NCBI GenBank assembly: GCA_964187785.1
Contig: OZ076409.1
Location: 78,246,001-78,310,000, forward strand
DNA: 64,000 nucleotides
Reading direction: 5' to 3'
From: Amphiscolops sp. MND2022
Taxonomy: Eukaryota
Shown here: positions 16,985 through 51,457 of the stretch, piece after piece
Numbering within the stretch: position 1 is the stretch's first letter
How the letters are laid out: each line of letters opens with the position of its first letter
Translations under genes and position numbers: made by a program
Notes under the pieces: generated by a model
Databases searched by the model: none
Seen by the model: the letters and a program-made list of their open reading frames with translations, nothing else
What the model was told of the DNA's origin: nothing

Positions 16985-17370
16985 TTTTTGCCGTTTTACG
17001 CAATAAATTGGCCATTTTGCTATGCTTACAAAATTGGCGATTTTGTTACGTTTCGAAGAAGACCGTTTTGTTTTACTTTAGAATCGACCATTTGTTACTA
17101 TTTCAAACTCGGCCATTCTTTTACTTTTTCAAAAATGGCCATTTTGTTACGTTTTCAAAATCAGCCTTTTTATGTTTTCAAAAACGGCCACTTTGTTACA
17201 ATTTCAAACAAAATCTATCCTTATGTTACTTTTCAAAGTTGGCCATTCTGTTAAATTTTCAAAATTGGCCATTTTACTACGTTCTCAAAGTCAGCCATTT
17301 TATGTTTTCAAAATCAGCCATTTTGTTACATTTTAGAAATCAATTTTGTTGAAAATTGACCATTTCGTGG
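16985..17370. repeat. Degenerate ~24-bp minisatellite (AAAATYGGCCATTTTGTTACGTTTTC)
   Basis: Motif recurs about 15 times by eye. Confidence 0.8.
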
Positions 17371-18796: not shown

Positions 18797-19320
18797 TTGT
18801 TTATCAGAAACAACTTTGAGTTTCCATTTTTCTGAACTAATCAATCTTTACTGATTGAACTGTCAAGCTGCAATGTGTTCAAGCAAATCATAATTTTCTA
18901 CTGAAACTATTAGCATTGGGTATAAAACTGAACCTCGGAGGTTATTGATTATCTCTTAACGTGTAAACATTCGGGAACACAAAATTTGCAAGTGTAATTA
19001 GTCAATGATGGACATCTTGAACAAAAAACGAACCAATTAATGATTAGTTCCTGCTCCTAATTCAGGCTTTAGGAAAGATTTTTCAACAAATTACACGTAA
19101 AATTTACAATTTCCAAACTCAAAGAATGTAACCTTAACAAAAGTCCGAGAAACAAGTTCACAATTCATAAGAAAATTCACAAGCTCTTCAGGGCTTCCTT
19201 ATTCTGTCAACAAACGGAAGCTGAGCCCTTTCATTCAAAACAACATAAGCTTTGTAATGATGCAATTCAGCATTTTTCTATCAAAATTTGGTAGTTTTCA
19301 TGTCATATTTTCCGTTTCAG

Positions 19321-19500
19321 TAAATTTTCATGGCAATGCAGGCAACATCGGCCATCGGATCCCGAATGCAGTCGAGATGGTGACTAAGCTGGGGTGCAAT
19401 GTCTTGTTGGTGGAGTACAGAGGATTCGGAAAGAGCACAGGAACGCCCTCTGAGAGTGGTCTCTACCTCGATGCCAAAGCCGCTATCAATTTTGTGAAAG
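19321..19500 (+). CDS. ABHD13: ABHD13-like exon 4
   Basis: NFHGNAGNIGHRIPNA..LLVEYRGFGKSTGTPSESGLYLDA, characteristic of ABHD13; AG/GT bounded. Confidence 0.95.
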
Positions 19501-20148
19501 GTGGTCAATATTCGTCTACGATCGTTTTCCTCATTTTTCTTCAGATGTGAAACTTTTTTGTACGTTGTTTTGTTTGATAGTTTGTTTACTTTGCGCGGGA
19601 TGATTTTACCACGTTCAAGGTTTCTCCTCCGTATTTTCTCAGGAAATAAGATCTACTAATAACGAGTGTTACACAAATATCGACCGACCCGATTATATAA
19701 GTCGAGCAAGATAAATACATTTGACAAACGAGAATTTTTCATTCGTTTGCGTTTTTTTTTTCTGAAAAACAATCAGGTAGGAAATATCAAATAAATTCTC
19801 CGGACGTTTAACAGAAACTCCTCACTACAATAAATATATTAGAAAAATTTTGAAAAAACGCAAAGAAATGCGCAAATAAAACTCACAACTTCAAGCCTGG
19901 AAGAAAAATAGTCTGATCATTTAAACTTTTCGAATTCGAACTTCATGACTTGGAATAGATATCGTCTTATGTGAATGAAATCTGTCATTTATGTGACTGA
20001 CAGTACAAACGTGCTGGATTTGTTTTATTAGGTGATGAGAAATGAGGAAATTGACGTTTCACTGGTCATTAAAGACTAACTGGTTTTCAGTTCTATGGTC
20101 AGAGACAAGAAGAGTTGTAAGGCTCATTCTATATCCAAACTGATTGTC

Positions 20149-20637
20149 TTTTTAGTCGGCGCTTTTCTTAAGAAAAGAGCCCGACTATTACAGTCACTCG
20201 TTTTTTTTTCTTTTTTTATTTAAGACAGACTCGAAGCGACGAACGTTAAAATTAACGTTCAACTACTAAATACAGTACTAAACTACTGGACCGGTAAAGG
20301 CAAACGGGGAGCGCATTCATTTACTTTTTAAACGTTACCTACAAGCCCGGACGAGACTCAAGTTCCCCCCCCCCTTTCGATTTTTTTTCGGCACTGTGAG
20401 ACTTTTTTCGAAATTTTTTTAATGTCCCCAAAGGGTCCCCCCTTTGAGTTTTTTGTTATTTTGCTACAGAATGCGTGTTTATAAATCAAAAAGGGTCCCC
20501 CTTTTACATTTTTCGGCACTGTGCGGCATTTTCCGAAAGATTTTTTTTCGAAAATTTCAAGTTTTTTTTCCAAAAAATATGTTTTGCGCTTTTTGAGCCT
20601 TAGATATAGCGCCGACTTGAGACGTTCCCGTCTTGTT
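20149..20637 (+). mobile_element. HINE-like element
   Basis: TTTTTAGTCGGCGC ... GCGCCGACTTGAGACGTTCCCGTCTTGTT. Confidence 0.72.
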
Positions 20638-20747
20638 AAGTTTGTATACTAAATGGGTTAACTAATGACTTTCAATTAAAATAACTTCTTATTCGGCAAT
20701 GAAATGAAATACAAAGCAGAAACAGAAATGAAAGACAAGGAAATATA

Positions 20748-21315
20748 AACAAGCCGGGAACGCCAAAGTCGGTGCCATATCTAATGCTCAAAAAGCGCAA
20801 CATTTTTAAAATTTTAAAACGGGACCCTTTGGGCTTTTTGAAACTCCAGTTTGTGACAAAACATGGAAAAATTGAAGGGGGAACCCTTTGGAGACATTAA
20901 AAAATTTTTGGAAAAAAGAAACTTGAGAACTTTGAACAGTATCACAGTGCCGAAAAATGTAAAAGGGGAATCCTTTGGATTTTTTAACATCCACTTTGTT
21001 GCATATTATCGAAACAATTGAAGGGGGCTCTTTGGTGTAATAAAAAAATTCGGAAAAAGTCTCATAGTTCCATAGAAAAAATCTAGTTTAAAAACACCAG
21101 GATAAAGATAGTATGGTGGACCCTTCGTATGTTTTCGAGGTTGTGGACGTCAGTTTTGTTTTTGTTTTGGACGAGGTTCTGACATTTCTAGTATGTTTTG
21201 GATATCAAGTATCAAGTTCAGCTTCAACAAATGAACAAAAAATGGACCTCACGCGTCTAAAAAAACTACCCAATGTAAGAGTCGGGCTCATTTTCCACTA
21301 AAATGCACCGAGTAA
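20748..21315 (-). mobile_element. HINE-like element
   Basis: AACAAGCCGGGAACG..AGTCGGTGC is the reverse complement of the family 3' end. Confidence 0.68.
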
Positions 21316-22738: not shown

Positions 22739-22874
22739 GTAAGCTACTAAGAGCATGGCTGAACAGAGTGCTGCTGGTGCAATGTTCTTTCAGCTCCAAG
22801 CAATGCATGTGAAACCTTTTTGTGATTCAAAGTGATTCTGTCAAGACCATGTCTATGAAACGGATATAATATAC

Positions 22875-24801
22875 TGTCGCAGGCTGCCGCCTGTGATGGT
22901 ACAAGGATCACTACTACCGCAGAAGGACAGGAAATAGCGGCCGGAACTCTACCAATATATTAGAGGTAAACATTAAAAACACAAACTTTGCTATTATTTT
23001 TTAGTCTACAAGTTGTACCTGTTATCGTTGCGAATTTTACACATAGTATAAAGTTTGTTGATATTAGTCCGTTAATGCCAACATTTGAAAATTCAGATGC
23101 TGTATTGATAATTTTAAAAGCTAGAAGTGCAGTATTAACACGCTGTTATAGCAATAGATAGGCAGCTAGAAAGCGTAAAGGAAACGAGTTCAAGTGAACG
23201 TAACTCCAATTCCGGAGACGTCACTTGAGCTCAACCTGTTAGCCAATCATATTCATCCATTTGAGTAATAGTAGTGCTGTATTTAATTAATGGCCGGTTT
23301 AGGCCATATGCCGGAATTTCACCTTTATCTATTGGCGCTTTAGTCAAACGGCCGGTTCCGGCCTTAATGTTCAGATGAAAGAATATTAATGCGAGCACTG
23401 TTGTGTTTCGTTTAATAGTAGTCTAATCACGTTGCTGTACTAATTAAACGTTCATTTTAGCTAATTGGCGTTTTATTTTATCCATTCCAATATTAGGCCG
23501 AATAAGGCCATTTGCCTGACTTCTATCCTCTGTTGCTGTGACCAATTGGACAGTGGCCGGTTGAGGCCCCTTTTCAATACTATTATTCAGATGCTAATTA
23601 CAATCATTTAGTATACTTTAAATGTCATGTATAATTACAAGTACGTCGTAAAGACTCATTTACCTTTTGAAATTAATTGGTGTAATCAATACCAATGTAA
23701 GATGTTGCTACCAATATTAGTCCAAAGGACATGTCTGACCATATTTACTAGTTGACACGTGGAATCTGTGTGCATATTATATAAAGGAAAATATGTGTTG
23801 TTACATGTAACATTGCTGTATACAAGTTGATCTAGCCTGCTAACGGGGCACGTGCCGACACGAGATTGTCAGCATTCCTGAAGTATTAGCGGCGTAAACA
23901 TTTTAATCGATGCTATTTGATGTACCGTGTGCCTTTTGAATACTTGTTATAGTTGTCAAAACAGGAATTTGATCGGCCGCGTGACCTTACGATCACGATT
24001 CGGCGGCACTTTGATGCTTGCATAGTCGAGTTAAGTCAGGTGCTTTCGGAATGTGTTTGTAACATTTTTTGGCTGTTTGCGTCATGTTTATCCCGCCCAA
24101 GGAAGTATATATAGGGGCAACTTCCTTTGGGTGGACACAATTTTGTTTTGGGTGGACACAACAATCTCGTTAACAATCATCAATTCTGTTTTCCGGTTTT
24201 AATAGTTTAACTATTTAACCCGGTTTAGTCTTAATGCCTACTACTAGAAAACAAAAGAAGGCAAGGAAATCTAGAGGATTAGAGATTCCCTCTGACATTG
24301 AAAACCTTGACATAATGTTAGGTGAAAATCACTTCAATGACATGAGGAGAGACGAAAGCCTCGATGGAACTTCCATTAGAAGGCAGGAAAGTGTTACAAG
24401 CAATAACTTAGAAAATGAGGAAATGAATCTCCATTCTGATCATAGAAATCCCGAAACTGGGACTAGTGCCGGTTACGACCGAACCACAGCGAGTATAGAT
24501 TCTCAAGCTGAGATCAATAAGTTATCGTGTGAACTAAACTCTAGAATATCTAGGGAGATGGATGAGATGATGAACAGCGTTAGTTCTCAAATCCAGAGAG
24601 CCATAAGTGATGCCATCAATAACCAAGTTTTGCCACAAATTCAAAACGTTATTATGGCTGGTTCAGGACAAGAGACTAGAAGGGGATGGGAGAGATCCGA
24701 CGAGAGACCGGAAAGTTATTCCGAAGTTCAGTATAACGCGAAAACTAGAACTACCCTCAATAATGAACACGGTGATAGAATACATCGTAATGTTCATGAC
24801 A
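22875..24801 (+). repeat. 5' LTR (1927 bp)
   Basis: Near-identical to 37259-39197 (about 15 substitutions by eye plus one 14-for-26-bp replacement); TATA-like TATATATAG at ~24106. Confidence 0.96.
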
Positions 24802-25928
24802 TGGTGACAGGAGACAACGAATCTCCAAATCAAGTTCCTGAGTTTCTCACAGGACGAATCTCATCCAGAAATCATCTCGACAGGTCCTTCGAGGACATCA
24901 ACCTCGACACGACGATCCCAGCACAAGAGAGAATCGCTACGGCTGCTGACTCCGACCCCATCACCCGACTGGCAGACGTCTTGACTACAATGCAAAATAG
25001 ACCGACAGCCCAACAACTCACCATACGCCCAGTCAACTCAAATACCATGACATTCGATAGCAAAAGTGAGAAATTCGAGCTGTTCGAAGACCTATTTCAC
25101 ACTATGATCAAGATGCAGCCAGAAATGACTGAGCAAATGAAGATCAATCACTTCCACTCTTTATTGAGGAAGAATGCTCTCCAGACGTTCAGAAATATCA
25201 ACTCAAGCAACCGACAAACTCTAGAGGACGTATTAGTCATCTTTAGACGGAAATACGTCAAGCCCGAGTCACAAGCGACTGCCAAACATAAATGGCACCG
25301 TCTAGTCTTCGATCCCAATACGATGAAGCTGCCTGATTTTCTCGAAGAATTGAACCAGGGAGCCGAGAAGGCGTTTGGCGATCATGCACAGAAAATGATT
25401 GACAGCTTGCTCTACGCAAAGCTGCCACCTAAGTTGAAGCGATCTGTCAACATGGCCAGATTAGAAAATGGCTCATATGATGAAATTGTTGCTCATTTGG
25501 AGAGAGAGTTGGAACTCAATGCCCTTGAGGAATCAGATGACCTACCAAAGGCCACAATGACCTCCTCATCTATAAAACCTAAAACTCCTCTGTCCACAGG
25601 GCAACTGTCCGATATCACTTGCAATTACTGCAAGGAAAAGGGCCACATGGTCAAGGACTGCGAAAAACTGAAAAAGAAAAAAGAAAAAGATGCCCAACAA
25701 GGCAAGTCGACACAGAAGAAAACATATCCGGAGTGTGGCACTTGTGGGAAAAAGAACCACCCGGAGGAGAGATGTTGGCAAGGTGCTGGTGCACATCTTA
25801 AACCCAAACGCACTAGACCTGATGACTCAACTGAAAATAAGCCCAATCCAAAGGCTCAGAAACCTCAGACCAAACCGACATCATCGAGCTCCCAATCCTC
25901 ATATCCTAATGATGAGTCAAAAAACTAA
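24234..25928 (+). CDS. gag: Gag, 564 aa, two CCHC zinc knuckles
   Basis: CNYCKEKGHMVKDC and CGTCGKKNHPEERC; helical capsid-like core; intact ORF. Confidence 0.93.
   Translation: MPTTRKQKKARKSRGLEIPSDIENLDIMLGENHFNDMRRDESLDGTSIRRQESVTSNNLENEEMNLHSDHRNPETGTSAGYDRTTASIDSQAEINKLSCELNSRISREMDEMMNSVSSQIQRAISDAINNQVLPQIQNVIMAGSGQETRRGWERSDERPESYSEVQYNAKTRTTLNNEHGDRIHRNVHDMVTGDNESPNQVPEFLTGRISSRNHLDRSFEDINLDTTIPAQERIATAADSDPITRLADVLTTMQNRPTAQQLTIRPVNSNTMTFDSKSEKFELFEDLFHTMIKMQPEMTEQMKINHFHSLLRKNALQTFRNINSSNRQTLEDVLVIFRRKYVKPESQATAKHKWHRLVFDPNTMKLPDFLEELNQGAEKAFGDHAQKMIDSLLYAKLPPKLKRSVNMARLENGSYDEIVAHLERELELNALEESDDLPKATMTSSSIKPKTPLSTGQLSDITCNYCKEKGHMVKDCEKLKKKKEKDAQQGKSTQKKTYPECGTCGKKNHPEERCWQGAGAHLKPKRTRPDDSTENKPNPKAQKPQTKPTSSSSQSSYPNDESKN
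24802..24813 (+). promoter_or_regulatory. Primer binding site TGGTGACAGGAG (resembles tRNA-Leu-type TGGTGTCAGGAG)
   Basis: TGG directly follows the LTR-terminal CA. tRNA identity is inferred from memory of tRNA-Leu 3' ends, with one mismatch. Confidence 0.7.
25919..25925 (+). promoter_or_regulatory. -1 ribosomal frameshift slippery heptamer A AAA AAC
   Basis: Lies directly before the gag stop; the -1 frame is open from here to 26356; the same AAAAAACTAA occurs at the matching place in element 1 (~2527). Confidence 0.8.
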
Positions 25929-28900
25929 CTTCGCCACAACTCCAATATAACGAACTTTTATCTGTCCGACAATACATCAGATCGGACCCTCCAACGCAAA
26001 CCCTCCACCAATACAATCAGCAATTGATGGGCTATCCCTCTGTTGTCTGGCAGCAGCAGATGGAAAAAGCTACCATCATGACCTACAATAACACCCATTT
26101 ATTCCAGAAACCAATTCCTGTTTGGGACTCTGATTACACCACTACCTTCACCACCCGCTTCAGGCCCATTCCCCTAATCGATGATTACAATCCAACATAC
26201 ATCGATCCAGACTACGGCAGAGATCCCTATTGGGACACCGAGCTTTACAACCAAGATTCACTGCAATTTCAATATGTCCTGGACGATATTGACTATTATA
26301 ACAGAACAGTCCACGAGAACCCCCCATTACCCATAACAAGAAAACACGAGCACTAATCGAAAACTGGCAAATGAATGATGGTACAAACCACCCAGTGTTC
26401 CCAAACCCATTGGGGACCGAGAACCCTGAAAACAATGGTGAATCCACGCCACAATCATTATTAGATGAAAAACAATTCCAAAATGTACTCATCACCAGAG
26501 ATGGTGAACCAGACTGTATACCCCTGTCAACCAACATCAACCTCAAATGCAAGAAATGCATGCTTTATTTCCCAATGGACTTTGGGGAATTGACCATTGA
26601 TGGATTAATAGACACTGGAGCACTGTCCAGTGCAATCCCTGAAATGGACCTCCGGAAAATCCGCCTTCTATCTCCACAATCTGTTATCCGAGAAGGTCCG
26701 CCTCCGAACTTCCAAATCATGGTCGCTAATGGGCAACTGGAAACTCCTAAGAGTACCATCGAGCTCAAATTCGAAGTTGGTGACATTGAGTTCCATGAAA
26801 TCTTTATAGTAATGGAACATTTGACCGCACCAATCATTGGACTAATGTTCCTTCAGAGAAATCATACAGTGCTGGACATGAGACAAGGGATACTGAATTT
26901 CCCCTTCTTTTCAATGCAGCTCAAAACGGCTGACCATAAGTACACAAATGTATTAGAACCAATTCTCAACCCTATTGAGATAACAATTCCACCAAATGAT
27001 AAAGTCCTAATTAGGACCAATTCCCTACTCTACCCTGAGAATGCTGTCACTGGAATTTTGCAACCGAGCGACCTTCTACATGAGGAAGGCGACATCACAT
27101 TTTGCCCAGCTTTGGTCACTCTGAATGACGGCAATTTATTGATACCAGTGAACAATTTCACAGACCACCCTTATAAACTCAAAAAGGGACTACATATTGC
27201 CAATTTCTCTGTCATGACGCCAGAACAGATGAAGTATGTCGAACCGGTAGACCCGGCATCAACCTGGCACCTTTTGCAGAATGACCAGGAGCAAGCAGCC
27301 CATTATGTCAGCAGTCTCATCAAAACCAATAGAAATCCACAAAACTCCGAAAATTATTGGTTCCCAACTCCAGAAAACCCTGGAAAGCCTGAGGAACACA
27401 CACCTATACAAAAATGAATCCTACGCGAGTTACAGGCCTTACAGGACTTGGAGACACTCGACCCCACCACAGATGCAGAATCACGTGCAAAATTCTTAGA
27501 AAACTTCGACTGGAAAGATTCCACCCTTACTCCTGAAGAAAAGGAGAAAATTGAGGAATTGTTAGTGGAATTCCATGACATCTTTGCACGACACCGATTT
27601 GATATAGGCATGAACGAGGAATTCAAAGTGAAAGTGACACCTAAGGACGATTCCCCAGCCTATAGTCAAAGCCTTCTAGCTCCTATCAATTTGAAGGAGG
27701 ACATCCTAGTCGAATTAGCCATGTTACACAAATATGGCATCATCACCACCCTACCGTTCTCAAAATATGCGAGTCCAATATTTGCACAGAAGAAACCGAA
27801 CGGGAAACTCCGACTCTTGGTTGACTTGAGAAAAATCAACAACCTCATCTCAGATGATTATATCAACAACAATCATCCCGTCAGTACACTAGTTGATGCT
27901 GCCCAACACTTGGCAGGCGAAAAACTGTTCTGTAAATTAGACTGTTCGCAGGCATACCACTGCCTACCAATGGCCGACCAACGCTCAATCGAAATGTTGG
28001 CTTTCAATTTTGCCAGTCGCACATTCGCTTACCGACGCTTGGCACAAGGCCTTAGTCGGTCACTATCCGCATTCTCGAGTTTCATGAGGGAATACCTCGA
28101 CAAAGTCATTAAAGCGGATCAGTGTGCCCAGTATGTGGACGATATCGGCATCGCAGCCAATGATGTCGACCACCTCATGACGAACCTGAGAGCCACGTTC
28201 AAATGCATTCAGGAAGCAGGCCTTAAGTTGACAATGCACAAATGTCACTTCGGTGCAAAAGAAATTGATTTTCTCGGACGGACTATTACCCCACAAGGCG
28301 TCAAACCTCAGAAACAGAACATGCAAAACTTTCTGGAAAAGACCAAATTCCCGAAGTCGAAAAAGGCTTTACAGCGCTATTTGGGATTCCTAAACTATTA
28401 CAGGAATTATGTCCCAAGACTCTCCGAACGCCTTGCTCCATTCTACAAGATGCTCAAAAGTGACGAAAAGGTCCTAGTATCGAAAGAATTAGTCCAACAA
28501 TTCGAAGGAATCAATAGAGCACTAGACAAATGTTGCGACCTGGCCCTACAACAACCCATTCCGAACAAACAAATAGCACTAATGACTGATGCAAGTTTTG
28601 GTGCAGCCGGGTACGCGGTCCTAATTGAAGACGACCCAAGTCAGAAATTTACATCACTCAGAAAATCGTATGCACCGGTCGCATATGGATCAAAAACTTT
28701 CACCCCAGCACAGATCAAGATGTCAATTTATGCCAAGGAATTCCTTGCAATTTATTTTGCATTCAAAGAATTCGGACAAATCTTCTGGGGTGCGCCGAAA
28801 CCGGTCATCATCCTTACGGACAACAAAGCTGTCACGAGATTTTTCCAAACGAAAATAATACCCCCAGCCCTGTGGAACGCGTGTGATTATTTCATTCAGT

Positions 28901-31130
28901 TCAATTTTGTCATAGCACACATCCCAGGGGCACAAAATACAGCCGCCGACTTTTTGTCCCGATTGGAAGCAGATCCAAAGGACAAATTGGTGATGAAAAT
29001 TCGTGAAGATGTACAAACACTAGCAATCGAAATCAACGTCCAATCCGCAGGTGTGACGCAAGAAGAACAAATCTTCTACACCAATGACGACGACGAGACA
29101 GAGGAACAGTATTGGGCAAGAAAAGAAGCAATTAGGAAAAATCCAACAACTGATGAGCCCACTGTTACTATACAAACTCTGTCAACAAATCTGGTCAAGC
29201 AACACCCCGATATACAAGTCCGATTGAGGAGAACGAACCAGATCATTATCGAGCAATCCAAGGATGCGGTACTACAACAATTGAAAGCAAAACTGCTTCA
29301 TGAAGAGTATTCAGAAAATCTACTACACCAGGATGCCCGATATAGACATTACGCAAACAATCTGGAACGAATTTTACTAAAGGACGAAATCCTGACAAGG
29401 CAATATTTCGATGAAACAGGGAATGTTAAATACCATCAAATTCTACTCCCGCAACATTTACTCCAGGAATTGCTCCAATCCCTTCACGGGACAGCGCATA
29501 AACATCCTGGAATTTCAAAAATGCTGCAGGAAATTCGACAGAGGTATTACTACCCTAACATGGCTAAACACGTCAGAAAGTGGGTAGAAGGGTGCGAACA
29601 ATGTGCCAGAGACAAAAGAGTCCCTAACCAACGATCACACCTGAGCTGCTCAACTTGCCCGAATGGGACCTCGGACCTGAAGACGCCATGCAAATAGACC
29701 TATTGCCGAATCTTCCCCCAAGTGGTGGGTATGAAAACGTCTTAACAGCAATTGATGTATTCTCCAGATATTTGTTCGCCTATCCCCTTACGGACACATC
29801 AGCGATCAAAGTAGCAAAAGCGCTCATTGACATCATGACTAAACACTCATATCTACCAACGACTCTTATCACTGATAATGGTACTGCATTTACTTCTACA
29901 ATTATTGCGGAGGTTACGCAGATTTTGGGCATCACACTCAAATGTGCAACGACAAAACACCCGCAGACAATTGGGAAATTGGAGCGAACCCATGCCTCAT
30001 TGAAAACAAATCTCAAAATGGCATGTGGGGAATATCGCCGACAGTGGCACAAATACTTGCCATTAGCAGTACTGAATTATAATACTAGTTATCACGCCAG
30101 CATCGGTTGTGAACCGACGAGAGTATTCCATGGAAGAATTCCATTTAATATCTTGGATCACAAACGTGGAAATAATCCAAATGAGCAGATCAACCCCACA
30201 ACCGAATTTGCTAAAGAAATCCAAAACCGGACAAAAATCCTAATTGACAAAACGAAGCAGAACATTATGCAGTCGTATATGAAGTACAAAGAATATTACG
30301 ACCGCAAAGCAAAAGCTGCTCCATTGAAGGAGAATGATTACTGTTTCGTCTTACAGCCGAAAGCGGATCATCAGGGATCAAAATTTCCATTCCGCGATTA
30401 CCGTTGGGTTGGATCATTTGTAGTCCAAAAAGTTTTGCCAAATGAAAACTATATAGTACGACGGATCAATACGAACAAATCTCAAATTTTGCATCGCATT
30501 CGCCTTAAGAAGTTCGTCCCCAATCAACCGCTTGAGGATAATTTCCGAGAACAACGTCTGCAGCCAGACGAAGAAATTGTCATTCCGCAAGATGACCTAT
30601 ACGCCATAGCGTGGGAAACAGATTTTGGCGAGCAGCTAGGTACACGAGACAACGAGCCTATTCCGACTAGCGTGCCGAATGGCGAACAACCGAATGCGGC
30701 ACAACCGAATACAAGTGACGCACACGAGAATGAAGAGGATTATGTAATCACGAGTGATGAATCAAATCTTGCCGATCGTGCGTCGCATAGCCGGAATGAA
30801 CGATTAATTGATGACGTCACTACAAGAAATTAAGCTAGTGAACAGTCTAGAAATGAAGAACCTGATTGGCCGAATCCGGCCATTTCCCCAAAAAGCCATG
30901 AAAAATCTTTGCCGGATACGGCAGACAGCCTAAAAGACAAAGAAATTTTACCCGATGAAAATTTAAGAACTGAAATCGATGCACAAAATTCTCCGAAAAG
31001 GGGGGATGATATTATCGTGCCCGAAATATCTGAAAACGATGCTAGAAATGAAAGTCTGAGCCCTAGAGGAGGGAAATATAACCTCAGACCTAACCCTAAC
31101 CCAAACTACTCAGAAGACTTCAGATACTAA
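25919..31130 (+). pseudogene. pol: Pol (protease, dUTPase-like spacer, RT, RNase H, integrase), broken by two frame breaks and two stops
   Basis: LIDTGA, YVDD, MTDAS, HKHPG..CEQC, QIDL..ITDNG..LER. Frame breaks near 26320-26370 and 29630; stops at 27415 and 30831. Confidence 0.95.
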
Positions 31131-31361
31131 GGATTGAATTTTCCCGGAAATGGGAATTCTTTTCTTTTATCTTTGTTTTAAGCCCCTCTGAGAATTTCTT
31201 TTGAATTAATACTGGGGCATTTCAAAGGATCCCATACAAAAATGGAATAAATATGGGATCAAGGCAACGAAGAAACAAAATCAAGAGCAAATGAGAAAAC
31301 AAAACAATGAAAGAAATGAACAAAGTTTACAGTCTGAAAGTACATAAATACATATGTACAT

Positions 31362-34300
31362 TTAGTCTTTAGAGGACCCTTGAACGGCTTTCTTGGATGC
31401 AGACGAAATTGTAGAACTGCTGCTACCTGCTCGCTTCCTCTGCTTCTTGGAAGGCACCTTTACAGCTGAATCATCAGGGATGGACGAGGCAGTATCCTTT
31501 TCTATCCGGACAGAACGAGTAGAAGGAACAGCAGTAACGGCCTTATAGGAAGTGAGAAGACTCTTGTAGATCTTAGACCTACCAAACTCATCCACAAGGG
31601 TCCACGGATCGTAGTCAGCAGAGAAAGCAGAACGCTCGAAAGAGGAACTGAGAACTGAGAACTTCTCTAAATTGACATCCGAGCAGCAATGGGAAATGGA
31701 ATTGGGCACACAGGAAAAGTAACTCTGGCAAGGCACCACTAGATCGGCAAAACGGCCCTGACACCCCGTTGTGTCAACACTCCCGAACAGTACTGGGGGA
31801 TATTGGGGGCTAACACTAGTCAGACACAAGCAGCAGAGTTTGAACAGATAGAACAAGTGCTCATGAGTTTGGAAAAACTCAAGCCCCATTAAAAAGTCTA
31901 TAAGATCGACGGAATTCTCCATCAGATCGAAATCTGGAGGATAGTTGACTCGGAGGTAGTCCAACAGAGCCAGATATTCGTCTCGACAACTGTTCTCGTT
32001 GGCGCTAGTGACCCATGATCGAAGCTGGAAAGTAGAATATAGCACATCGAAGTGCCGGAGCCCGACCTCAGAAGGCCTTTTGAAAAGCACGAAGGGATCA
32101 AAAGCAGCCAACCCCTTTATCACTTCAGAGCTCAGACCAGCTTGACTAAGGACTTGTTTGACTAGATATTGAATGAATTGCAACGCCTCTTTGACAAAGC
32201 TGCTGGTCGTTTCTGCAGCCGTCTTCTCGATAGCAGCTTTCTCCGATTTCTTGTTCAGGCGTGTGACTTCTGCACTCTGTTTACTAGCTGTAGCTATCCG
32301 GTTTGTGAGACGGTGCCGGACAAGGAAGTCTTCCTCACTCATGAATTTGCCCTCGCTCAACTTAAACCCGAGAAGGAGGAACCACGAGTTCTCGAGGGGA
32401 ATGATTTCTGGCAAATAACATCGGGCGCACAGTTTTGAAACAAAGCGGCAAACCTCCCCACAGAGGAAGAACGACGCATCACGGCGGCCCTGCAGATTGA
32501 TGGCGAAACTGGTAACGTCTGAAATACAACAGTCGTGATTATGAGAGGAATAGGATATACAAACGAGACAATGTTGATAGTGATTCAACAACTCAAGGAC
32601 CTAAATTATCAGAACGACGTCTTAGTGCACTGACGTGAAATGAAACCGTATACTCACAATCGCCAATTATACGTTGGAAGAATTCCAATTTAGCGACGAA
32701 GAAGAAGTCACAGATGATGGACCACTCGAAGCTTTGGACCTGATTGTGGACTCCTTGCATTCCTTGGTGAGGGGTGTGCGTAGTCAAGTACTGTCTGATT
32801 GCCTTCCAATTCTTCACAAGTTCTCGGCAAAGACTGGGGAGGCTTGACAAATCTAGTTTGCAGGTGTCGATGGCCTTAAACGAACCAAATTGTCTCTCAA
32901 CTGCACCTACCTTCAAACCTCTAACTACATGAGTGAACTTAATATACTTACTCTTCCCAGATCAGGAGATTCCAGAACCCAGTCCTCACCAGTAGCAGCT
33001 CCCAATGAAACGATCAGGCACTTTAGGACAGAGAAAAAGTCGATCCGTCCAAACACGCTGTAGGTGGGCTTGTGCATCATCTTCTGAAGCTGCAGCTGCT
33101 CGAAACGAAAGCAACTCTGTACTGCTCGGGGAAAGAACTCATTGTGATCTATGGTTTGGATCAACTCTACCGGACATCCCGAACAGGCGACGATATCGGC
33201 TTTGGTTGAAACCACAGATAGTAGCCTGGATATCGAACCCAAGTCTCCAGTCAGATCAGCGGAGGGAAGCCCACTTCGGCACACAAAGACGCGACAAAGA
33301 GAATCGCCTTTCCAGAACTTGATAGACATGAGCCTATTCACGCCCACATTCTCAAATTCGATAGCGAAGCATTGGGTGGTAGCAATTTGCTCTGCTAATT
33401 CACTCATGGCACAATTGAAAATGTGTTGGAAGATGGTCTAAAGAAGAAAAAGACAATTATGAAAAGTGTAGGGAATCTATACCCTCCCTGAGTAAATGTT
33501 ATCCTGAAAGGGAACCTACCGAAATTCGTTCTTCCCCCCAATCAAAGTCGCAGTAACTAGTTTGATAGTTCGTCAGAGATCCTATCTGAGCCCATAGTCT
33601 GCGGAGTACTCCAAGATCACCGTGAGTTTGCACGAAGTCTCCAATGAGGTGTATTTGTGTATTGGCCCTCGACGCAGGAGTGACGAGTGTGGTTGACGTC
33701 CCTTTCACGAAGTCGTCGTAGAATGGGAAGCGTTCTCCGATGTCTATTAGTTCGACGTGTATAAATTTGGGGAGTTCTTTCGCCAGCTCAAACTTGGTGA
33801 GGATCTTGCCGTTCCGCCCTCTGACCCGATGCTGCACTTTCCCAGTCACTGGATCAACGCTTTTGAGGTGTTCATAGCGCCACCTTTGATCACGTCTGAG
33901 GTGTTTTTCAGTTCTGTGGTGACGCAGAATCTCCAGTGTACCCTTGGTTTTCACAGAAATATTCTTCTTACATGTATGGCACCACACCATATAAGGATTG
34001 TGAAGGGGATCAGCTGGCCCGGAGATGAACGATCGGGTCCAGCCAATTTTGGAGAAGAATTCCTCCTTCATGGGAATGCCCAGTGTATGGCCGCGCCGTT
34101 TCTTCTTGGGCAATTTGCCAGAACTCGAAACTAGAGGTTGTGCTGGGGCCGTCTGGGTACGTAATTCGGAGAGCGTGGCGTCGAGACTGGATTGATCAGT
34201 GGACTCAAAACCTGCTTGGGTAGGGTCAGCTCGAGAAGGTGGAACGCGGCTGAAAGGTTCCTTGAAAGCCTGTGAGATGATTGCCATCTCACCAGAACTG

Positions 34301-35689
34301 TCAGTCTCGTTGAAAGATTCTAACCCTCTACTTTCTTGGCCAGCACTGGATCCTTCAGAGGTGTCAGTCCCTGATCCAGAACAGTATTCAGCCCGCGAAC
34401 TATCTTCCGAATCACTTTGCAGCCCTGGGCTGGGAGTTTGAGCCCTTGGTCGGATCTTGAAGTGGTCAATTCGGGCACTGGAAGTGACGGGGGCCCCCCT
34501 AACCGCTCCGATTACCATCTGCTCCATGGTGGAGTAGGACATTTTCAAGGTCTCGTCTGTAAGGACCCTTAGGAGATGATAGATTTGTGGCTCCGTGAAC
34601 GACACAGTTCTATGACCGAGCGGGAAGGTGATAGTGCTGGCATCATCATCAAAATACTGTTTCAAAATGGCCCTACTACGGCCGGAAAGCTCCCTGATCT
34701 TGGGGTCCTGAGCTGCTGAAGTGGAAGGACGCATGGAATCAGGAATTGCAGCGAAAGTATCAGTTGATGACCCTTCTCCTGCTGTGTCTGCTACATTACC
34801 TATTGGCAGGTAGGCGTACAATTGAGGAGCACTAGCCTGGCTAGATGTGTCACCGGCTTCTTCGGTTCCAGTCTCATCGCCCAACCACCTGACTTTTGGT
34901 GTTCCTGTTGGCAGCTTGGGGACATCACATAGGGAAGAGCTTTCGTCCGTTTCAATCTGGAGAAATGAGGCTGCGGACATTTCGGCAGGAGTCACGTTAG
35001 TGGGCAACAATTCCGGTAATATAGTCCTCGAGGAAGGAGCAATCGTTAGTCCAGTCTCTAACTGAGTCAAATTGAGCTCGTCGGTCTCACCGGCTACGCC
35101 TGGGGTAGGGGTACTAGTACGAAAGAGCGGCGTAGTAACCCGTGCCTCGATCCCCGTGGAAGAAGAACCCTCAGTTATACCTCTCCCAGTCTCTTGTTCT
35201 CCCATCTCAGAGTTCTCCGCAGTATGTCCCTCTGATTGCTGTTGGGCCTGTTCGAGGAGCTGAAGCTTTTCGTCGGCATAAGATGTTACGTCGACGTTGC
35301 TGTCTGTACTGCTGGGAGACCTTGTTGGCTTTATTGGAGGAAAAGGAGGAGGAGACAATTGTGATCCACGGACGGTGGAGGACGTACCCACAGAAACAAT
35401 CGTTTGTGTATGTTGGTCGGGAATGTCCGCTGCAGAGTTGGTTTGTGTTTGCGGTTCGTCTCCTGGCTGGTTTGCTAAACAAAAGGAGATGAAATTTGGC
35501 GGTGAGCTTCCTTGAAAAAAATCCATTTTACCGCATTAGAAAACTTCCGGAAGTGTTTGAAAATCTGAACGAAACGTGTTATCACGCGTTTACTAATGGA
35601 AACAGGAAGCATATTGTGAACGGATTTAACCCTGATCAAGTTAAATTTTAGTTCGGAATAAAAACAAACCAACCTTCAGAAGAAGACAT
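31362..35689 (-). CDS. Spliced antisense gene, 5 exons (35689-35674, 35474-33520, 33437-32952, 32874-32658, 32518-31362), 1276 aa: S/T/P-rich N-terminus, zinc finger, degenerate hAT-transposase-like body
   Basis: Four GT..AG introns (199, 82, 77, 139 bp), each phase-compatible, join the listed minus-strand ORFs into 3831 nt with no internal stop. Finger motif WCHTCKKNISVKTKGTLEILRHHRTEKH. Exon 1 is the least certain. Confidence 0.82.
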
Positions 35690-36561
35690 CCTGGGACTGA
35701 ATTGGATGTGAGAACGAGTCCTTGTCCGGCTGTAGAAGTTGATGGATATGGCCGAAAGCGGCTGGAGAAGGGGTTGCTCTGGGACGAAGAATCGGCTAAG
35801 AAGTGACGCGCGCGGGAAAATGAGTATCAGTCGAGAGGAAACAAATGGAAGATAATCAGAATTGAAATGGAATTAAAATTGGGTAGAAGAATTGAAGAAA
35901 TTGGAAAGTTGGAGTTCGTGGCTGAAGATTACTACCAGACTAATATTATGGATTATCTACATATTTATTCTGTACATGGAGTCTGCCAGCGAAGTGTACA
36001 AAGAACTTTATTATTTACAGCTTATTTAGTTAGAGGCCGGTTATGGCCGTTTACCCTGTTTTGTTTTGCCGTTTTGTCCAGTTACCCTAGTTACCCTTAG
36101 CTAGAATTTTCGCCATCTTGAATTATTTGGATTTATTAGTTTCGCCATTTCTTATTATTTAATTTTACAACTTATCGAAGCTTAACGCTGATTGGCTGAA
36201 GTCATTTTGAAAGAATTCCGCGTCGCGTGTCGTTAATTGCTATCAGGCAAACCGTTAATTACCCACTTGAAACGGATGAAGATAATATTTACAACTCAAG
36301 CGTCATTAACACCTCTCAGAGTGATGGTGCTGATGGGGGGTAAACACTGAGTTATCAAAGGATGCCGACTACGTATAAAATTCCATTCAGAAATGTTTAC
36401 GTCGGATCAGGGCAATTTACCGATAACTCGACCGCCAAAAACGAATTGCCGGGAAAAGGCCCGAGTCGACTAAAATTTTGAGTTGGTAAATTCATTCCAC
36501 TTTGAAATCTCACTCAAGCTAGTTAACTTTCCCAATCAGCAATATTGCTAAGAAACTCATA

Positions 36562-37347
36562 ATGCAGAGGTATAACTTAACTAAAAAGCTCTTTGATCTT
36601 GAAGAAGACTCAGAAAGTTCAGTGGATTCAGTTATCTACATCTCAAGTGACAGTGAGAATGAAGTCTCAAGTTCCTGGGACTCAGACTGGTCCACGGATA
36701 CAGAAGAGATCATAGAAAGAATAGAACGAGAGGTGAAAGCAGCTCCAATCCCTATAGCGAGACGCGGGATGACGACGGAAGATTTAGATGACGAGATGAC
36801 AGCTGGACCAAGCAGTGCATGGCCTGTTCCGCCCTCTACCCCTAAACTGGGATTCGAGTATTTTAACAAGGAAATGTGCTTGGCCCCATCGAAAAAACAA
36901 AGAAAATCAAAAGTCGAGCTCTGTGCAACTGTATTACCCGTTCTGGAGTCCCCACAGTCTCCTCCTGACCATGAAAGAGGACCGAGCATTGACACCCCTC
37001 TTGCGCAGTCAACCTCTGGACCTTTCTATGCGTCCTATCATGTGCAAAATATCGAGCCTTACCAGGATGTGAGCCAAAATTTGCACACAGGCTGTATGGT
37101 ATGTGGCAAGTCGAGAGATCAAATAAAAGCAGAAAAGGTGAACTGGTACATGCAAAGATCGACACCTAGCAGTGAGCCCGCTTATATTACCGCCCTACGA
37201 CGAGAGGCTTATGAAAATGGCTTGAACGCAGGAAGCTTACTTTTCCTAACACCCGCCGTGTCGCAGGCTGCCGCCTGTGATGGTACAAGGATCACTACTA
37301 CCGCAGAAGGACAGGAAATAGCGGCCGGAACTCTACCAATATATTAG
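36562..37347 (+). CDS. Accessory ORF, 261 aa: acidic N-terminus, CxxC motif, ends inside the 3' LTR
   Basis: Intact ATG-to-stop ORF; its C-terminal part is conserved at protein level in element 1 (5850-6102). Confidence 0.78.
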   Translation: MQRYNLTKKLFDLEEDSESSVDSVIYISSDSENEVSSSWDSDWSTDTEEIIERIEREVKAAPIPIARRGMTTEDLDDEMTAGPSSAWPVPPSTPKLGFEYFNKEMCLAPSKKQRKSKVELCATVLPVLESPQSPPDHERGPSIDTPLAQSTSGPFYASYHVQNIEPYQDVSQNLHTGCMVCGKSRDQIKAEKVNWYMQRSTPSSEPAYITALRREAYENGLNAGSLLFLTPAVSQAAACDGTRITTTAEGQEIAAGTLPIY

Positions 37348-39197
37348 AGGTAAACATTAAAAACACAAACTTTGCTATTATTTTTTAGTCTACAAGTTGT
37401 ACCTGTTATCGTTGCGAATTTTAAAGATAGTATAAAGTTTGTTGATATTAGTCCGTTAATGCCAACATTTGAAAATTCAGATGCTGTATTGATAATTGTA
37501 AGAGCTAGAAGTGCAGTATGAACACGCTGTTATAGCAAAAGATAGGCAGCTAGAAAGCGTAAAGGAAACGAGTTCAAGTGAACGTAACTCCAATTCCGGA
37601 GACGTCACTTGAGCTCAACCTGTTAGCCAATCATATTCATCCATTTGAGTAATAGTAGTGCTGTATTTAATTAATGGCCGGTTTAGGCCATATGCCGGAA
37701 TTTCACCTTTATCTATTGGCGCTTTAGTCAAACGGCCGGTTCCGGCCTTAATGTTCAGATGAAAGAATATTAATGCGAGCACTGTTGTGTTTCGTTTAAT
37801 AGTAGTCTAATCACGTTGCTGTACTAATTAAACGTTCATTTTAGCTAATTGGCGCTTTATTTTATCCATTCCAATATTAGGCCGAATAAGGCCATTTGCC
37901 TGACTTCTATCCTCTGTTGCTGTGACCAATTGGACAGTGGCCGGTTGAGGCCCCTTTTCAATACTATTATTCAGATGCTAATTACAATCATTTAGTATAC
38001 TTTAAATGTCATGTATAATTACAAGTACGTCGTAAAGACTCATGTAACTTTTGAAATTAATTGGTGTAATCAATACCAATGTATGATGTTGCTACCAATA
38101 TTAGTCCAAAGGACATGTCTGACCATATTTACTAGTTGACACGTGGAATCTGTGTGCATATTATATAAAGGAAAATATGTGCTGTTACATGTAACATTGC
38201 TGTATACAAGTTGATCTAGCCTGCTAACGGGGCACGTGCCGACACGAGATTGTCAGCATTCCTGAAGTATTAGCGGCGTAAACATTTTAATCGATGCTAT
38301 TTGATGTACCGTGTGCCTTTTGAATACTTGTTATACTTGTCAAAACAGGAATTTGATCGGCCGCGTGACCTTACGATCACGATTCGGCGGCACTTTGATG
38401 CTTGCATAGTCGAGTTAAGTCAGGTGCTTTCGGAATGTGTTTGTAACATTTTTTGGCTGTTTGCGTCATGTTTATCCCGCCCAAGGAAGTATATATAGGG
38501 GCAACTTCCTTTGGGTGGACACAATTTTGTTTTGCTCCTAATATTCAGTTGATAACACTTTCTCGTTAACAATCATCAATTCTGTTTTCCGGTTTTAATA
38601 ATTTAACTATTCAACCCGGTTTAGTCTTAATGCCTACTACTAGAAAACAAAAGAAGGCAAGGAAATCTAGAGGATTAGAGATTCTCTCTGACATTGAAAA
38701 CCTTGACATAATGTTAGGTGAAAATCACTTCAATGACATGAGGAGAGACGAAAGCCTCGATGGAACTTCCATTAGAAGGCAGGAAAGTGTTACAAGCAAT
38801 AACTTAGAAAATGAGGAAATGAATCTCCATTCTGATCATAGAAATCCCGAAACTGGGACTAGTGCCGGTTACGACCGAACCACAGCGAGTATAGATTCTC
38901 AAGCTGAGATCAATAAGTTATCGTGTGAACTAAACTCTAGAATATCTAGGGAGATGGATGAGATGATGAACAGCGTTAGTTCTCAAATCCAGAGAGCCAT
39001 AAGTGATGCCATCAATAACCAAGTTTTGCCACAAATTCAAAACGTTATTATGGCTGGTTCAGGACAAGAGACTAGAAGGGGATGGGAGAGATCCGACGAG
39101 AGACCGGAAAGTTATTCCGAAGTTCAGTATAACGCGAAAACTAGAACTACCCTCAATAATGAACACGGTGATAGAATACATCGTAATGTTCATGACA
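37259..39197 (+). repeat. 3' LTR (1939 bp), includes a copy of gag codons 1-189 (ORF 38630-39205)
   Basis: Direct repeat of 22875-24801; ends CATGACA then TSD. Confidence 0.96.
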
Positions 39198-40144
39198 TAT
39201 ACTAAGTTGGAAACATGGATGTATTAAAAAAATTTAAAATACAGAAGTGATTTGAAGTTGCTAGAAAGAGATATTGAGAATTTAAACAGATCTTACGAAT
39301 CTGATGTGGACATGGATGAAATTGAATCAAGAAGAAAGAAAACTCGTCAAATAAGAATGAAATTAGAACTGATTCGGCATTAAACTACTAGGATTCTGGA
39401 GGCTGCAGGAGATTAACCATAGGATGACCGAGAAGATCGATGGGATGACGAGATGAGTACATGAAATGCGCAAATTAACAGGGTCATAAATGCTGCAGTT
39501 AACCAGAGAATAATTCGTCAAACACAAATCGCAGTAAGCGCGTTCATTGATAAGTGAATTGAAGACATGGTTGTGATTCTTCCGTTGGACCTCATAAGGA
39601 AATTGACTGTGACGCTCCCTGCAATTCAAACAGAAAATGAACGAGATGAACCCTTTTAAAAAAGATAAGGAACATTCATTTTACTTAGTCTGCTTATTTG
39701 AGTCAATTTCGGTCAAGTTAATGCACCGAAGTGCAAGTTAAAGATCAGTTAATCTTTCTTTCACCGGCTTGAAATGGTTTAAAGAGTATTATATTAAACG
39801 AAGCCCTTATGTCCGAAGACAAGGAAATATGTGCGAAAACAACTCATGCATTTAATATTGATGAATTTTTTTTGTAAAAAAACTAAAACTCAAAAACAAA
39901 ACCAAGATGAAAGTTTATTATCAATGACACTTAAGCAATTAGAAAATATACAAAAAAAAACATTTCGAAACTGCCAACATTGGGGCTCGTTTGAAATCTT
40001 TTCGAGGTGAGGAGACTACTAAATGATTCGTAATCCAGAAACTTGCAGCACGTGTTTTTTTTAGTTTCAGGTGGTTTTGTTCCCCGTTTTTGGGACATGC
40101 AAAAAAGTAATGAGAGAACACTACAGTTTAATTAATTTCTACAG

Positions 40145-44088: not shown

Positions 44089-47000
44089 TGTGGTAAATGC
44101 TATTGAAGTCATGAAAGTGTTAAAGTTGTCAGTTGTAAATATGTATCAACACTACCTGTCAAAAGTCTAGCTTAAGATTATTTTGCTAGAGCCAGTTGCC
44201 ACAGAGCTTTGAGAAAAGATACACGTTCTAAAAAAACACTTCAATTCATCATATTGTATAATACATTCTTAATCCTCTACATCTTTTACAATTTCCATTC
44301 GAGTTCCACGTTAACATGGCGCTGCGAACAGAAAGCAGCAATTCATCCTCTTAAACATTGTCAACAACGGCAATGTCGCACCTCGTCGGGTTACCAGTGT
44401 CCTGGCATGAGGCCAATTCAACCCCTACCATGGAATGGGGCAATTGGCTGGATTTATTCCAAGTGGCTGTCATGGCCAAGTTCTCTACCTCAACCACAGA
44501 GTTGACTCGTGAAGTGAATGAGCAGACTCCAAGGGCCCGAGCTTTCTTAGGGGATATGGACGAAGACCCTGCCAAAAAAAGTAGCCAGTGTGCTGTATCT
44601 GTCACTTGGAGAGGCGGCAAGGAAGCTATTCAAAGATAAATACCCCCATACAACCCTCTGGAACTTAAAGGTGAGGGAACTGATACAGCTAGCAACGGAC
44701 TGCTTCCTAATAAAAAGAAACCGTACCATCGACCGTCATAAATTCTTTTCAAGAATGCAGCAAACCAGAGAGACACTTCAACAATTCTGGCACACGTTAA
44801 ATGGTTTAGCAGCCCTGTGCGATTTTGGAGAAATAATGGAAACCCTCGTGCTAGACATGTTCATTCTGTCTAGTGCAGGAAAAACTTTGCACTGAAGCCC
44901 ATGAGCCAGATCAGGCCTTGGAATTTGCAATTGCGTTTGAGGAGGGGGTGGAAAGACAGAAGCCATATGGCTTACAGACAGCAGAAATCCCAAAAATTGC
45001 GGTGAAAACCGAGCCTGTATATGCAATCCAAAAATCATCTAACTCACAGGAATTCTTCAGACGTGGGGAATCCCACTTTACCCCGGATCACATAAAACTA
45101 TGTACAGCAACAAACAATCGATCTAATTTTTGTAAAATTGTGGGGCACGTAGAAAAGTGCTGCAACAAGAAGTTCCCCAAACGTCAAAAAGAAAAGCTGC
45201 AAAGGTTGAAGTCCAAAAACAACAAATTTCAAGAAATGCGAAGAGTAAATTATATCGACGACGAAAGTGAAAGTGACGAATCTGACAGCAACGAAGAGCA
45301 ATTAGTTCTCCAAATCGACGGAAGCGGAAGCAAACCCTTCTACATGGAAGGAACTATGTGCGGAAATTAATTTAAAGCGATCATTAATACTGGTTCCCCC
45401 ATATCTATTTTTACTAAACGAGATTTGACCAAAATCATCGGGGAAAGAAAGCTGGTAATCATGGACATGGTTGACAACGAGCGATATGTAGATTACAATA
45501 AAAGACTTCTGGATTTATTGGGCGACCAATTTGTGCGCCAGGAAATTGCCGGTGTCACAGTCTCGAATATAAGAGTGTTGGTGGCGCCAAATAGCGGAAA
45601 GTCGATAATCGGCCGCGATTGGCTAATTAATCTGCGTTACAAAATGCGTCAGCCAATAGAAAGAGGTGAGTGCAAAGTAAACACTGTATTTGTAAAGTGC
45701 GCAAAAGCGGTGAGTGAGATAAGTCCCAAAGAAAACATCAGCCCCGAGATTCAGCAAGTAATGCGGGAGTTTCCAGATTTGTTTAAACGGAAAGCTCGGG
45801 TAAAAAATTACGAAATCAAAATCGATATGAAAGATAATGCAAAAATATCACAGCAAAAAGGCCGTCGAAGTACTATTCAACTACAGGAGCAAGTAGAAAA
45901 AGAAATTGAAAAATTGCTAAAAGATGGCCACATTGAAAAAGTAGTAAAAATTCAAGATGACGTATTTACTCAATTGACAGTTATTACAGTTAAAAAGGAC
46001 AAATAGGCGAAAATAGCGCTGGATGCACGCGCGCAAAATGAATCTATAGCAAAAGATGAATACCAAATGCCCAACCTAGATAATTTGATTGACATGATTG
46101 CGGAGGAATTGGAAAAAAGTGAAGGGGAAGCCTGGTATTCGTCTGTAGATATGCCTTATGCTTATGGACAAATACCGCTACATGAATTAACAAAAAGACA
46201 TTGTAAATTTCAAATAGTCAGAGGAAAATCCACCGGTAGATATCGATTTACCACTGGGTATTATGGACGGATTGTAATGCCAACTGAATTCCAAAAATTA
46301 TTGGATTTGACGCTAGCCATTATAAATAGTGTGTTTGTGTAAAAGGTGACATTTTAATTGTAACCAAGGGAACCAAGCAAGAGCATGTAAATGAAGCAAG
46401 AGAAGTTATGAGAGTGTTTGTCGACGCCATTTTACTAAAGGCGGGGAAATGCATAATTGCTCAAGAGAGCATAGAATGGCTAGGCTTCAAATTATTGCGA
46501 ACAGGCATTTCCCCGAACAATACAAAATCCCAGGGTATCAGTGAAAGATTGCGACCGACCAATTTGAAACAATTACTCATTTCTGGGGGCAGTCAATCAG
46601 TTTAATAAGTTTCTACCTAGTTTACCTTGAATTAGTTTTCCTTTTAGATCCTTTTTAAAGGAGGTTGCAGAGTGGGAATGGAATAACAGTCATGAGAAAG
46701 CTTTTGTACAAATTAATGAAGAAATCAAGAACTTTGTAGACTGATCACATTTTGAAAGGAACCAAGAAATTAGAATTATTTGTGATGCAAGCAAAAAAGG
46801 ATAGGTGCAGTGTTGCAACAAAAGGAAAATAAGAATGAACGGAGACCAATTTGCTTTGAATCACGCTTTTTAACAGATTAGGAAATAAAATACTCCATTA
46901 ATGAACTGGAGTTATTAGCTATAGTATGAGCAGTCAAACATTTTATCAATTATGTATATGGTGTACAGTTTAAAGTGATTTCAGATCACAAAGCGTCAAT

Positions 47001-51436: not shown

Positions 51437-51457
51437 CAAATTGACAAAATAGAAAGA

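Follow-up and report, generated by a model that had tools for sequence, protein, structure and literature searches.

Antisense open reading frames (ORFs) are described from several plant and fungal Gypsy retrotransposons, among them Retand (TRP28/PF04195), Grande (gene23), RIRE2 and Boty (PMC7264820 and, in its available part, PMC11963269). Most of these ORFs have no similarity to other transposable elements (TEs), their origin and function are open, and a search for spliced antisense transcripts has been urged (PMC7264820); the word 'intron' is absent from the main text of PMC11963269. Here we describe an antisense gene in a Gypsy element of Amphiscolops sp. MND2022, contig OZ076409.1, contained in a window of 64,000 nt (positions 78,246,001-78,310,000; all coordinates below are relative to this window). 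Genome-wide searches were run on the same 1.07-Gb assembly. Like the Retand-type ORFs, the gene occupies the slot between pol and the 3' long terminal repeat (LTR), is antisense and is found family-wide; their own internal promoter and proposed nuclear or DNA-binding role are also similar to what we propose. Unlike them, it has four to five conserved introns and a DDE-like predicted fold, and it gives no Pfam match to the TRP28 (PF04195)/PMD type.

According to the available parts of the respective papers, PMD domains have moved between Gypsy elements, hosts and MULE transposons (PMC5418596), VANC proteins and their targets co-diverge (PMC5735166), and VANC is structurally related to MAIN/PMD (PMC13547354). 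As described there, VANC of the VANDAL (MuDR) transposons resembles our case in being a TE-encoded accessory protein with lineage-specific repeated element motifs. However, it belongs to a plant DNA transposon, whereas the carrier here is a class I element, and for its transposase-like protein binding and anti-silencing are predictions. The hAT transposases (Hermes) and their domesticated relatives ZBED, GTF2IRD2 and FAM200 share with the antisense protein a C2H2 finger, putatively BED-like in our case, and a predicted RNase H-like core with a long helical stretch behind it. In contrast to them, our locus has no recognisable catalytic triad, no terminal inverted repeats with an 8-bp duplication, a long acidic N terminus and no significant sequence match, and domestication would have been by a retrotransposon, not a host. 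Animal LTR elements also carry extra genes, such as bdelloid DEDDy, GDSL and env, Oikopleura Tor env with an internal promoter (PMC5408684, PMC4402516), Cer1 CERV and a Steamer-like antisense ORF (PMC10309623, PMC10974842). In the available parts of these descriptions they share with our case an accessory gene downstream of pol, modular exchange and a precedent for an internal promoter; none of those compared combines antisense orientation, several introns and a transposase fold. A literature search over titles and abstract openings, with most subscription journals, Repbase and supplements outside its scope, found no description of an LTR element with an antisense gene that has several introns and derives from a transposase.

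The explanation that best joins the observed gene structure, clade-wide linkage, selection and motif enrichment is that the gene encodes a captured pseudo-transposase that serves its own element as a self-targeting dimeric activator or anti-silencing factor, much like VANC (probability roughly 0.55). If true, this would imply that genes pass from class II elements to those of class I, and possibly a sequence-specific anti-silencing system outside plants. The family offers an apparently traceable origin for an antisense ORF, a DNA-transposase fold; a candidate target motif comes with its own control for specificity, since two clades have two palindromes, and its introns form a natural series for retention and precise loss inside a retroelement.

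The first-pass annotation had assembled the gene from minus-strand frames, and its structure holds: five exons join through four GT..AG introns into 3,831 nt, encoding 1,276 residues and one terminal stop (Table 1). The basic KKKRR motif (residues 462-466), the C-x2-C..H-x5-H finger (residues 504-530) and the S/T/P-rich N terminus (32-36% of residues 1-460) are likewise as first described, and the first 250 residues are acidic. For intron 3, the nearer acceptors at 32900 and 32924 break the frame and the one at 32874 is in phase. A canonical poly(A) hexamer was not found in the 460 nt past the stop. An env or env-like product was rejected, given the antisense orientation and the lack of a transmembrane segment (highest 19-residue hydropathy 1.58).

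The gene belongs as a fixed component to a large and very abundant Gypsy clade with recent activity. A search of the genome with exon 5 returned 7,555 candidates, 127 of them scored, which makes thousands of candidate loci but is not a copy number. Sixty loci, chosen by the window protein or by distant homologues, were fetched; at every one of the 60, pol sequence lies on the same side and on the opposite strand, 59 have reverse transcriptase (RT) and 58 have ORF X, the second accessory ORF of the element. In an unbiased converse sample, 20 of 150 integrase matches, the gene is present at 19 loci. Both samples together place it in 79 of 80 loci across deep lineages, and a nested DNA-transposon insertion or a chance array of ORFs can be dismissed on these sister copies. 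In agreement with this, no inverted repeat with an 8-bp duplication surrounds the gene, and no such duplication was found beside any of five flanking short inverted matches. Ten sister elements were extended to both ends; all ten have LTR pairs 97-99.9% identical and nine a readable, varied 5-bp target-site duplication, and about 40 of the 150 integrase matches sit in open frames of 1,734-1,746 residues. Near-identical LTR pairs and long open frames thus mark the clade as recently active. Database homologues of the antisense protein are proteins from ENA assemblies (661 cluster representatives at E<=0.001). One is only 26-31% identical to its best matches in this genome, which suggests that the family also exists in another genome. 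No full-length homologue appeared among longer proteins, in weak searches, and a metagenome scan gave no relative.

The elements fall into two major clades, A, which includes the window copy, and B (RT about 70% identical in DNA), congruent in both trees. Among 58 sequences, 47 pairs have RT DNA more than 95% identical yet exon 5 less than 75% identical, as in the window copy and the copy L035 (RT 97%, exon 5 61%), and 24 pairs have exon 5 above 96% yet RT below 91%. Between clade-A lineages the LTRs are only 53-67% alike outside their gag part, against 88-95% for RT. These discordant identities indicate deep LTR-plus-accessory lineages that share a recombining pol. Such reassorting lineages over a nearly shared pol are new here, as are the clade-specific LTR and promoter dyads described below.

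The introns are conserved far beyond chance and, on this comparative evidence, are real. In the 60 other copies, GT or AG stands at the predicted sites in 57/59, 55/59, 54/59, 54/59, 55/58 and 57/60 cases; the positions were projected from the protein alignment, and the misses include intron-less copies, deletions and position slips. Intron lengths range from 64 to 228 nt, and the splice sites keep their codon positions down to about 30% exon-5 protein identity. In 19 integrase-picked copies, 150 of 152 sites are canonical. The exon 1 donor motif is found in 55 of 61 sequences; the ATG lies upstream of it by 16 nt in 50 and by 13 nt in 2.

Introns are antisense to the genomic RNA here, and introns so placed are invisible to the spliceosome and survive reverse transcription. 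Three introns are precisely absent in some lineages. Intron 3b, inside exon 4, has GT in 37 of 39 and AG in 39 of 39 sequences and is retained by relatives with 75-79% exon-5 identity to the window copy, yet is precisely missing from the window lineage; introns 3 and 4 are absent from L106, and intron 4 from L110. Precise loss of this kind implies that spliced antisense RNA existed and was copied back, and the gene is presumably expressed and spliced. An exact-pattern search for the intron-4-less junction of the window lineage returned no match. A different event is seen in L018 (about 4610-4630 of the oriented copy), where an in-frame deletion starting at the exact donor removes intron 3 and a few exon 4 codons.

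Intron 1 has features of its own. Among clade-A lineages it is 82% identical, versus 61-66% for introns 2 and 3, and in clade B it is less distinct (70% versus 59-68%). Its last 52 nt form an in-frame alternative N terminus, stop-free in 38 of 38 distinct sequences (pN/pS 0.46), and it contains an in-frame ATG at 35526. A second start or a promoter is possible.

By its dN/dS of 0.03-0.23 across all parts, measured against close and mid-distance copies, the antisense gene is under purifying selection; RT and integrase give a comparable 0.06-0.13. The intact gene had initially been set against the broken pol of the same copy. The contrast itself stands, with pol interrupted by frameshifts near 26320 and 29628 and stops at 27415-27417 and 30831-30833, but it carries no special meaning. 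Across 58 copies, a sample biased to intact exon 5, the antisense gene has 49 lesions in 42,565 codons and pol 92 in 46,980, so that about 1.5 lesions are expected in 1,276 codons and none would occur with a probability of about 0.23. Since both genes decay after insertion, selection acts on the propagating lineages, and the intactness of the window copy is unremarkable. Host domestication of the window copy was rejected because sister copies decay in both genes.

As to what the protein is, AlphaFold run on 36 exon-3 sequences predicts a helix, three strands, a helix, a strand and a helix (predicted local distance difference test, pLDDT, 67.6), and in this model exon 3 is of RNase H topology. 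Against 48,161 chains, the top match was Hermes (8edg; Z 6.6, root-mean-square deviation 3.6, 110 aligned residues, model 1-117 on Hermes 153-274). Integrases came within 1 Z of Hermes yet were shorter, with 78-91 residues aligned. A second structure comparison gave ISCth4 at Z 7.0 and Hermes at Z 6.7, with 110-112 residues aligned. The exon 5 model is mostly helical (pLDDT 60.6), and a complex model of exons 3 and 5 scored 0.26, which gives no answer. All 28 aligned exon-2 pieces keep the four zinc ligands of the finger unchanged. A protein-language-model atlas places the finger region near the GTF2IRD2 zf-C2H2_12, FAM200 and zf-BED clusters (0.83-0.87) and exon 5 at 0.90 to hATC and FAM200 clusters (53-72% PF05699). 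We regard the antisense protein as very probably a derivative of a DDE transposase with a helical insertion, and an origin from hAT specifically as probable.

Several results weigh against this assignment and against the functional reading built on it. A fold Z below 8 may reflect no more than the common RNase H arrangement, the integrases tie within 1 Z, and the atlas scores of 0.83-0.92, given their low recognition, serve as leads only. For exon 5, Foldseek gave no match and VIA only generic helical bundles, which leaves hAT uncontradicted. Hidden Markov model profiles tested against hAT ORFs from 63 loci of the same genome were not significant. Neither was hhalign against two hAT alignments, where shuffles beat the real score in 6 of 30 and the best alignment of A2 with A6 fell on an F..A....FDP stretch (P 0.21). 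An RNase H-like core followed by a helical region is seen in the models but, given the middling Z and the ISCth4 tie, is not specific to hAT. Of the hAT derivation proposed at first, the transposase with a helical insertion is thus supported by fold and, weakly, by the language model, while the label 'hAT' is not established, because the profiles are non-significant and ISCth4 ties. The comparison suggested with Hermes and ZBED came out in the same divided way: the exon 3 model matches Hermes at a middling Z, but Foldseek alone (Hermes rank 8, E 0.17; no hit at E<=0.001) and hhalign are not significant.

Sequence libraries added little. Pfam zf-BED recognised the finger in only 2 of 28 members (best E 0.024), hATC PF05699 matched none of 71 and 78 members, and Pfam gave no curated match on the exons or on alignments A1, A2 and A4. 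Sequence profiles of the PDB gave no match for the antisense protein. Searches of the genome with DUF4371 and zf-C2H2_12 matched nowhere, the controls included. A hAT subfamily of the same genome (L156, L158, L159, L161, L163, L169, L173) has the pattern F..A..KL...F.A.R.FDP..EW..Y..FW..YP.L, spaced like exon 5, with similarity that is not significant.

The catalytic residues appear to have been lost. With D180, D248 and E572, which we take to be those of Hermes, as an approximate register, the first position is a variable E/Q/A, and at the second an S or L precedes an invariant Gly. The alignments contain no conserved acid at the third position, no conserved Glu past the HL..LF.L.CLC helix and no CxxH His after strand 5; the absence of catalytic motifs noted initially is thereby borne out. 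These positions bear on a separate and unlikely alternative, that the protein descends from another RNase H-fold protein (a host gene or a MULE/IS256-like transposase) or still has nuclease activity of a non-canonical kind. The tie of ISCth4, a MULE/IS256 transposase, with Hermes and the negative hAT profile tests are in its favour, as is a strand-1 Glu conserved in at least 90% of the 36 exon-3 sequences. On the other hand, the finger type, the atlas neighbours and the motif order indicate hAT, and the second and third acidic positions are non-acidic in the alignments.

The candidate targets of the protein are short palindromes. GCC-N6-GGCC has 33 strand matches in the window versus 1.65 expected; this dyad A stands four times in each LTR of the element and once each at 36035, 35750 and 30868. 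Six clade-A LTRs contain 2-4 copies each versus about 0.06 expected, and the enrichment is confined to a spacer of 6 (29 counts versus at most 3). A de novo scan for gapped words returned GGCC-6-GGCC as top word in clade-A LTRs and GGAC-5-GTCC in clade-B LTRs (22 versus 0.17). This dyad B occurs 4-10 times per clade-B LTR and is spread throughout clade-B elements at 1.4 per kb; control DNA has a motif density of 0.06-0.08 per kb. In the zone from promoter to LTR, motif A is found in 41 of 42 clade-A but 2 of 18 clade-B loci, and motif B in 18 of 18 clade-B but 2 of 42 clade-A loci. The dyads persist in LTRs that are otherwise 53-67% identical. A lineage-specific repeated motif thus co-diverges with the protein, as for VANC, in a correlation that comprises one clade contrast. 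Such a palindrome, fixed in spacing and different from one clade to the other, is expected of a dimeric binder encoded by the element, and from this pattern the antisense protein would bind the dyad of its own clade.

In the mechanism we favour, an ancestor of the Gypsy clade would have captured a DNA-transposase gene of the helical-insertion DDE class, most likely hAT, inserted in reverse between pol and its 3' LTR. This gene would be transcribed from an internal promoter and, to judge by conservation, spliced. Its product would have lost the catalytic residues while keeping the BED-like zinc finger, the RNase H scaffold and the helical C terminus, alongside a long acidic low-complexity N terminus and a basic motif resembling a nuclear localisation signal. 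In the nucleus it may act as a dimeric sequence-specific factor on dyads in its own LTRs and internal promoter (GGCC-N6-GGCC in the window clade, GGAC-N5-GTCC in the sister clade), and binding would activate the element or shield it from silencing, in cis and in trans. Expression, transposase origin, binding and the activating effect are the steps that we infer. The fullest version of this account is tentative: a class II transposase would have been domesticated by a class I element, in the form of an antisense gene with several introns, the dead enzyme would recognise a co-evolving LTR palindrome as a VANC-like switch for self-protection, many deep LTR-plus-accessory lineages would exchange a common pol, and introns would be lost through reverse transcription of the antisense mRNA.

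The link between motif and clade has weaknesses, being a single phylogenetic contrast and post hoc; moreover, clade A has a single motif although its antisense alleles are about 40% divergent, and ORF X, integrase, gag or different host factors could instead be what binds. It is conceivable, though again unlikely, that ORF X or host transcription factors bind the dyads and that the transposase-derived protein acts through protein contacts, for example as a decoy for the silencing machinery, or as a repressor that keeps copy number down. In favour of this, ORF X matches the antisense gene in conservation and linkage, a single clade contrast is not enough to tell which factor binds, and dyad A is also seen in small, unrelated repeats of the window. 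Against it, an element-encoded dimer accounts for a clade-switching palindrome with a fixed spacer better than a host factor common to both clades, and a BED-like finger and a putative dimerisation region are found in the antisense protein alone.

Oligomeric binding to element ends is a property of transposases; with the location of dyads in LTRs and the basic motif, this would suit an integration or targeting cofactor that attaches both to LTR motifs of the cDNA and to host chromatin and that tethers the pre-integration complex or imports it. We consider this improbable, because dyads also stand at the internal promoter and, in clade B, along the whole element, target-site duplications are varied, and alleles reassort freely over the same RT. 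A post-transcriptional role is most improbable, whether as a Rev- or CERV-like factor for export of genomic RNA, for which the available part of the Cer1 CERV paper offers a precedent (PMC10309623), or with the antisense RNA itself as main regulator, a role discussed for antisense RNAs (PMC7264820) and one that the unusual conservation of intron 1 would fit; strong selection on a 1,276-residue protein with domains of DNA-binding type, and dyads resembling double-stranded DNA sites, speak against such a role.

The host element (22875-39198) spans 16.3 kb with an LTR pair 98.2% identical. Its TG..CA LTRs, short target-site duplication, primer-binding site and domain order, gag followed by protease, RT, RNase H and integrase (PR-RT-RH-IN), are those of Ty3/Gypsy. 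The pol and antisense genes are convergent, and ORF X is divergent from the antisense gene.

Table 1. Features of the Gypsy element and its antisense gene (window coordinates).
Feature	Position	Strand	Remarks
Target-site duplication, left	22870..22874	+	TATAC, 5 bp
5' LTR	22875..24802	+	TGTCGCA...GACA; holds first ~190 gag codons
GGCC-N6-GGCC dyads, four	23292..23568		5' LTR, at 23292, 23350, 23496, 23555; candidate binding sites
gag	24234..25928	+	CCHC zinc knuckle; start inside LTR
Primer-binding site	24803..24814	+	TGGTGACAGGAG; within gag; kept in sister elements
pol (PR-RT-RH-IN)	25916..31130	+	Four lesions in window copy; end approximate
Dyad copy	30868..30881		Close to pol 3' end
Exon 5	31362..32518	-	Mostly helical in model; putative insertion-domain end, dimerisation-like C-terminal region, basic S-rich tail
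Intron 4	32519..32657	-	139 nt, phase 1; precisely absent in L106, L110
Exon 4	32658..32874	-	Most relatives hold extra intron 3b here
Intron 3	32875..32951	-	77 nt, phase 0; absent in L106
Exon 3	32952..33437	-	Predicted RNase H-like core (alpha-b1-b2-b3-alpha-b4-alpha); longest fold matches Hermes, ISCth4
Intron 2	33438..33519	-	82 nt, phase 0
Exon 2	33520..35474	-	Acidic S/T/P-rich N terminus, basic motif (34093-34107), BED-like C2H2 finger (33901-33981), conserved ~150-residue region
Intron 1	35475..35673	-	199 nt, unusually conserved; palindrome ACTTCCGGAAG at 35544-35554
Exon 1	35689-35674	-	16 nt; ATG + 13 nt
Putative internal divergent promoter region	35690..36522		Promoter role inferred; dyads at 35750-35762, 36035-36048
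ORF X	36523..37347	+	Second accessory ORF, 274 codons, C-x2-C, conserved; extends into 3' LTR
3' LTR	37259..39198	+	
Same four dyads, repeated	37676-37952		3' LTR
Target-site duplication, right	39199..39203	+	TATAC, 5 bp

The primer-binding site TGGTGACAGGAG resembles what we take to be the 3' complement of tRNA-Leu; ARAGORN found no tRNA, and Rfam had no match within 30800-39300. A clear polypurine tract before the 3' LTR was not found in clade A, whereas clade B has a short G-run: the zone at 37240-37258, which overlaps ORF X, reads CCCGCCG in the window copy, sisters of clade A have only short C/G-rich words ending in AG, and those of clade B have GGGGAG to GGGGGGAG. ORF X has a dN/dS of about 0.11-0.12, with the C-x2-C and SQAAACDG motifs conserved across the LTR start, and gave no Pfam match. 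Its conservation starts upstream of the first Met, at KIAKK, and there is no evident acceptor of constant phase that would account for the start.

Elsewhere in the window, positions 1-7794 hold a degenerate relative with a direct repeat (1-1460 and 6349-7794, 92%), gag remnants (926-2447), an ORF X-like piece (5860-6048) and several dyad-A motifs; pol and the antisense gene were not detected in it. Other retroelement remains lie at 44176-48924, with an integrase (rve) at 47356-48492, and at 59548-64000, with gag (Retrotrans_gag) at 61109-62557; a strong C-over-G skew sets in from 59 kb. A tandem array at 10306-13149 comprises ten copies of 255/338-nt units. The dispersed small repeats (AAAGGGTCCCCC...GGCACTG units) occur in both orientations at 15800-21000 and 51400-55800, and two members, at 54514 and 55750, contain the dyad-A-like word.

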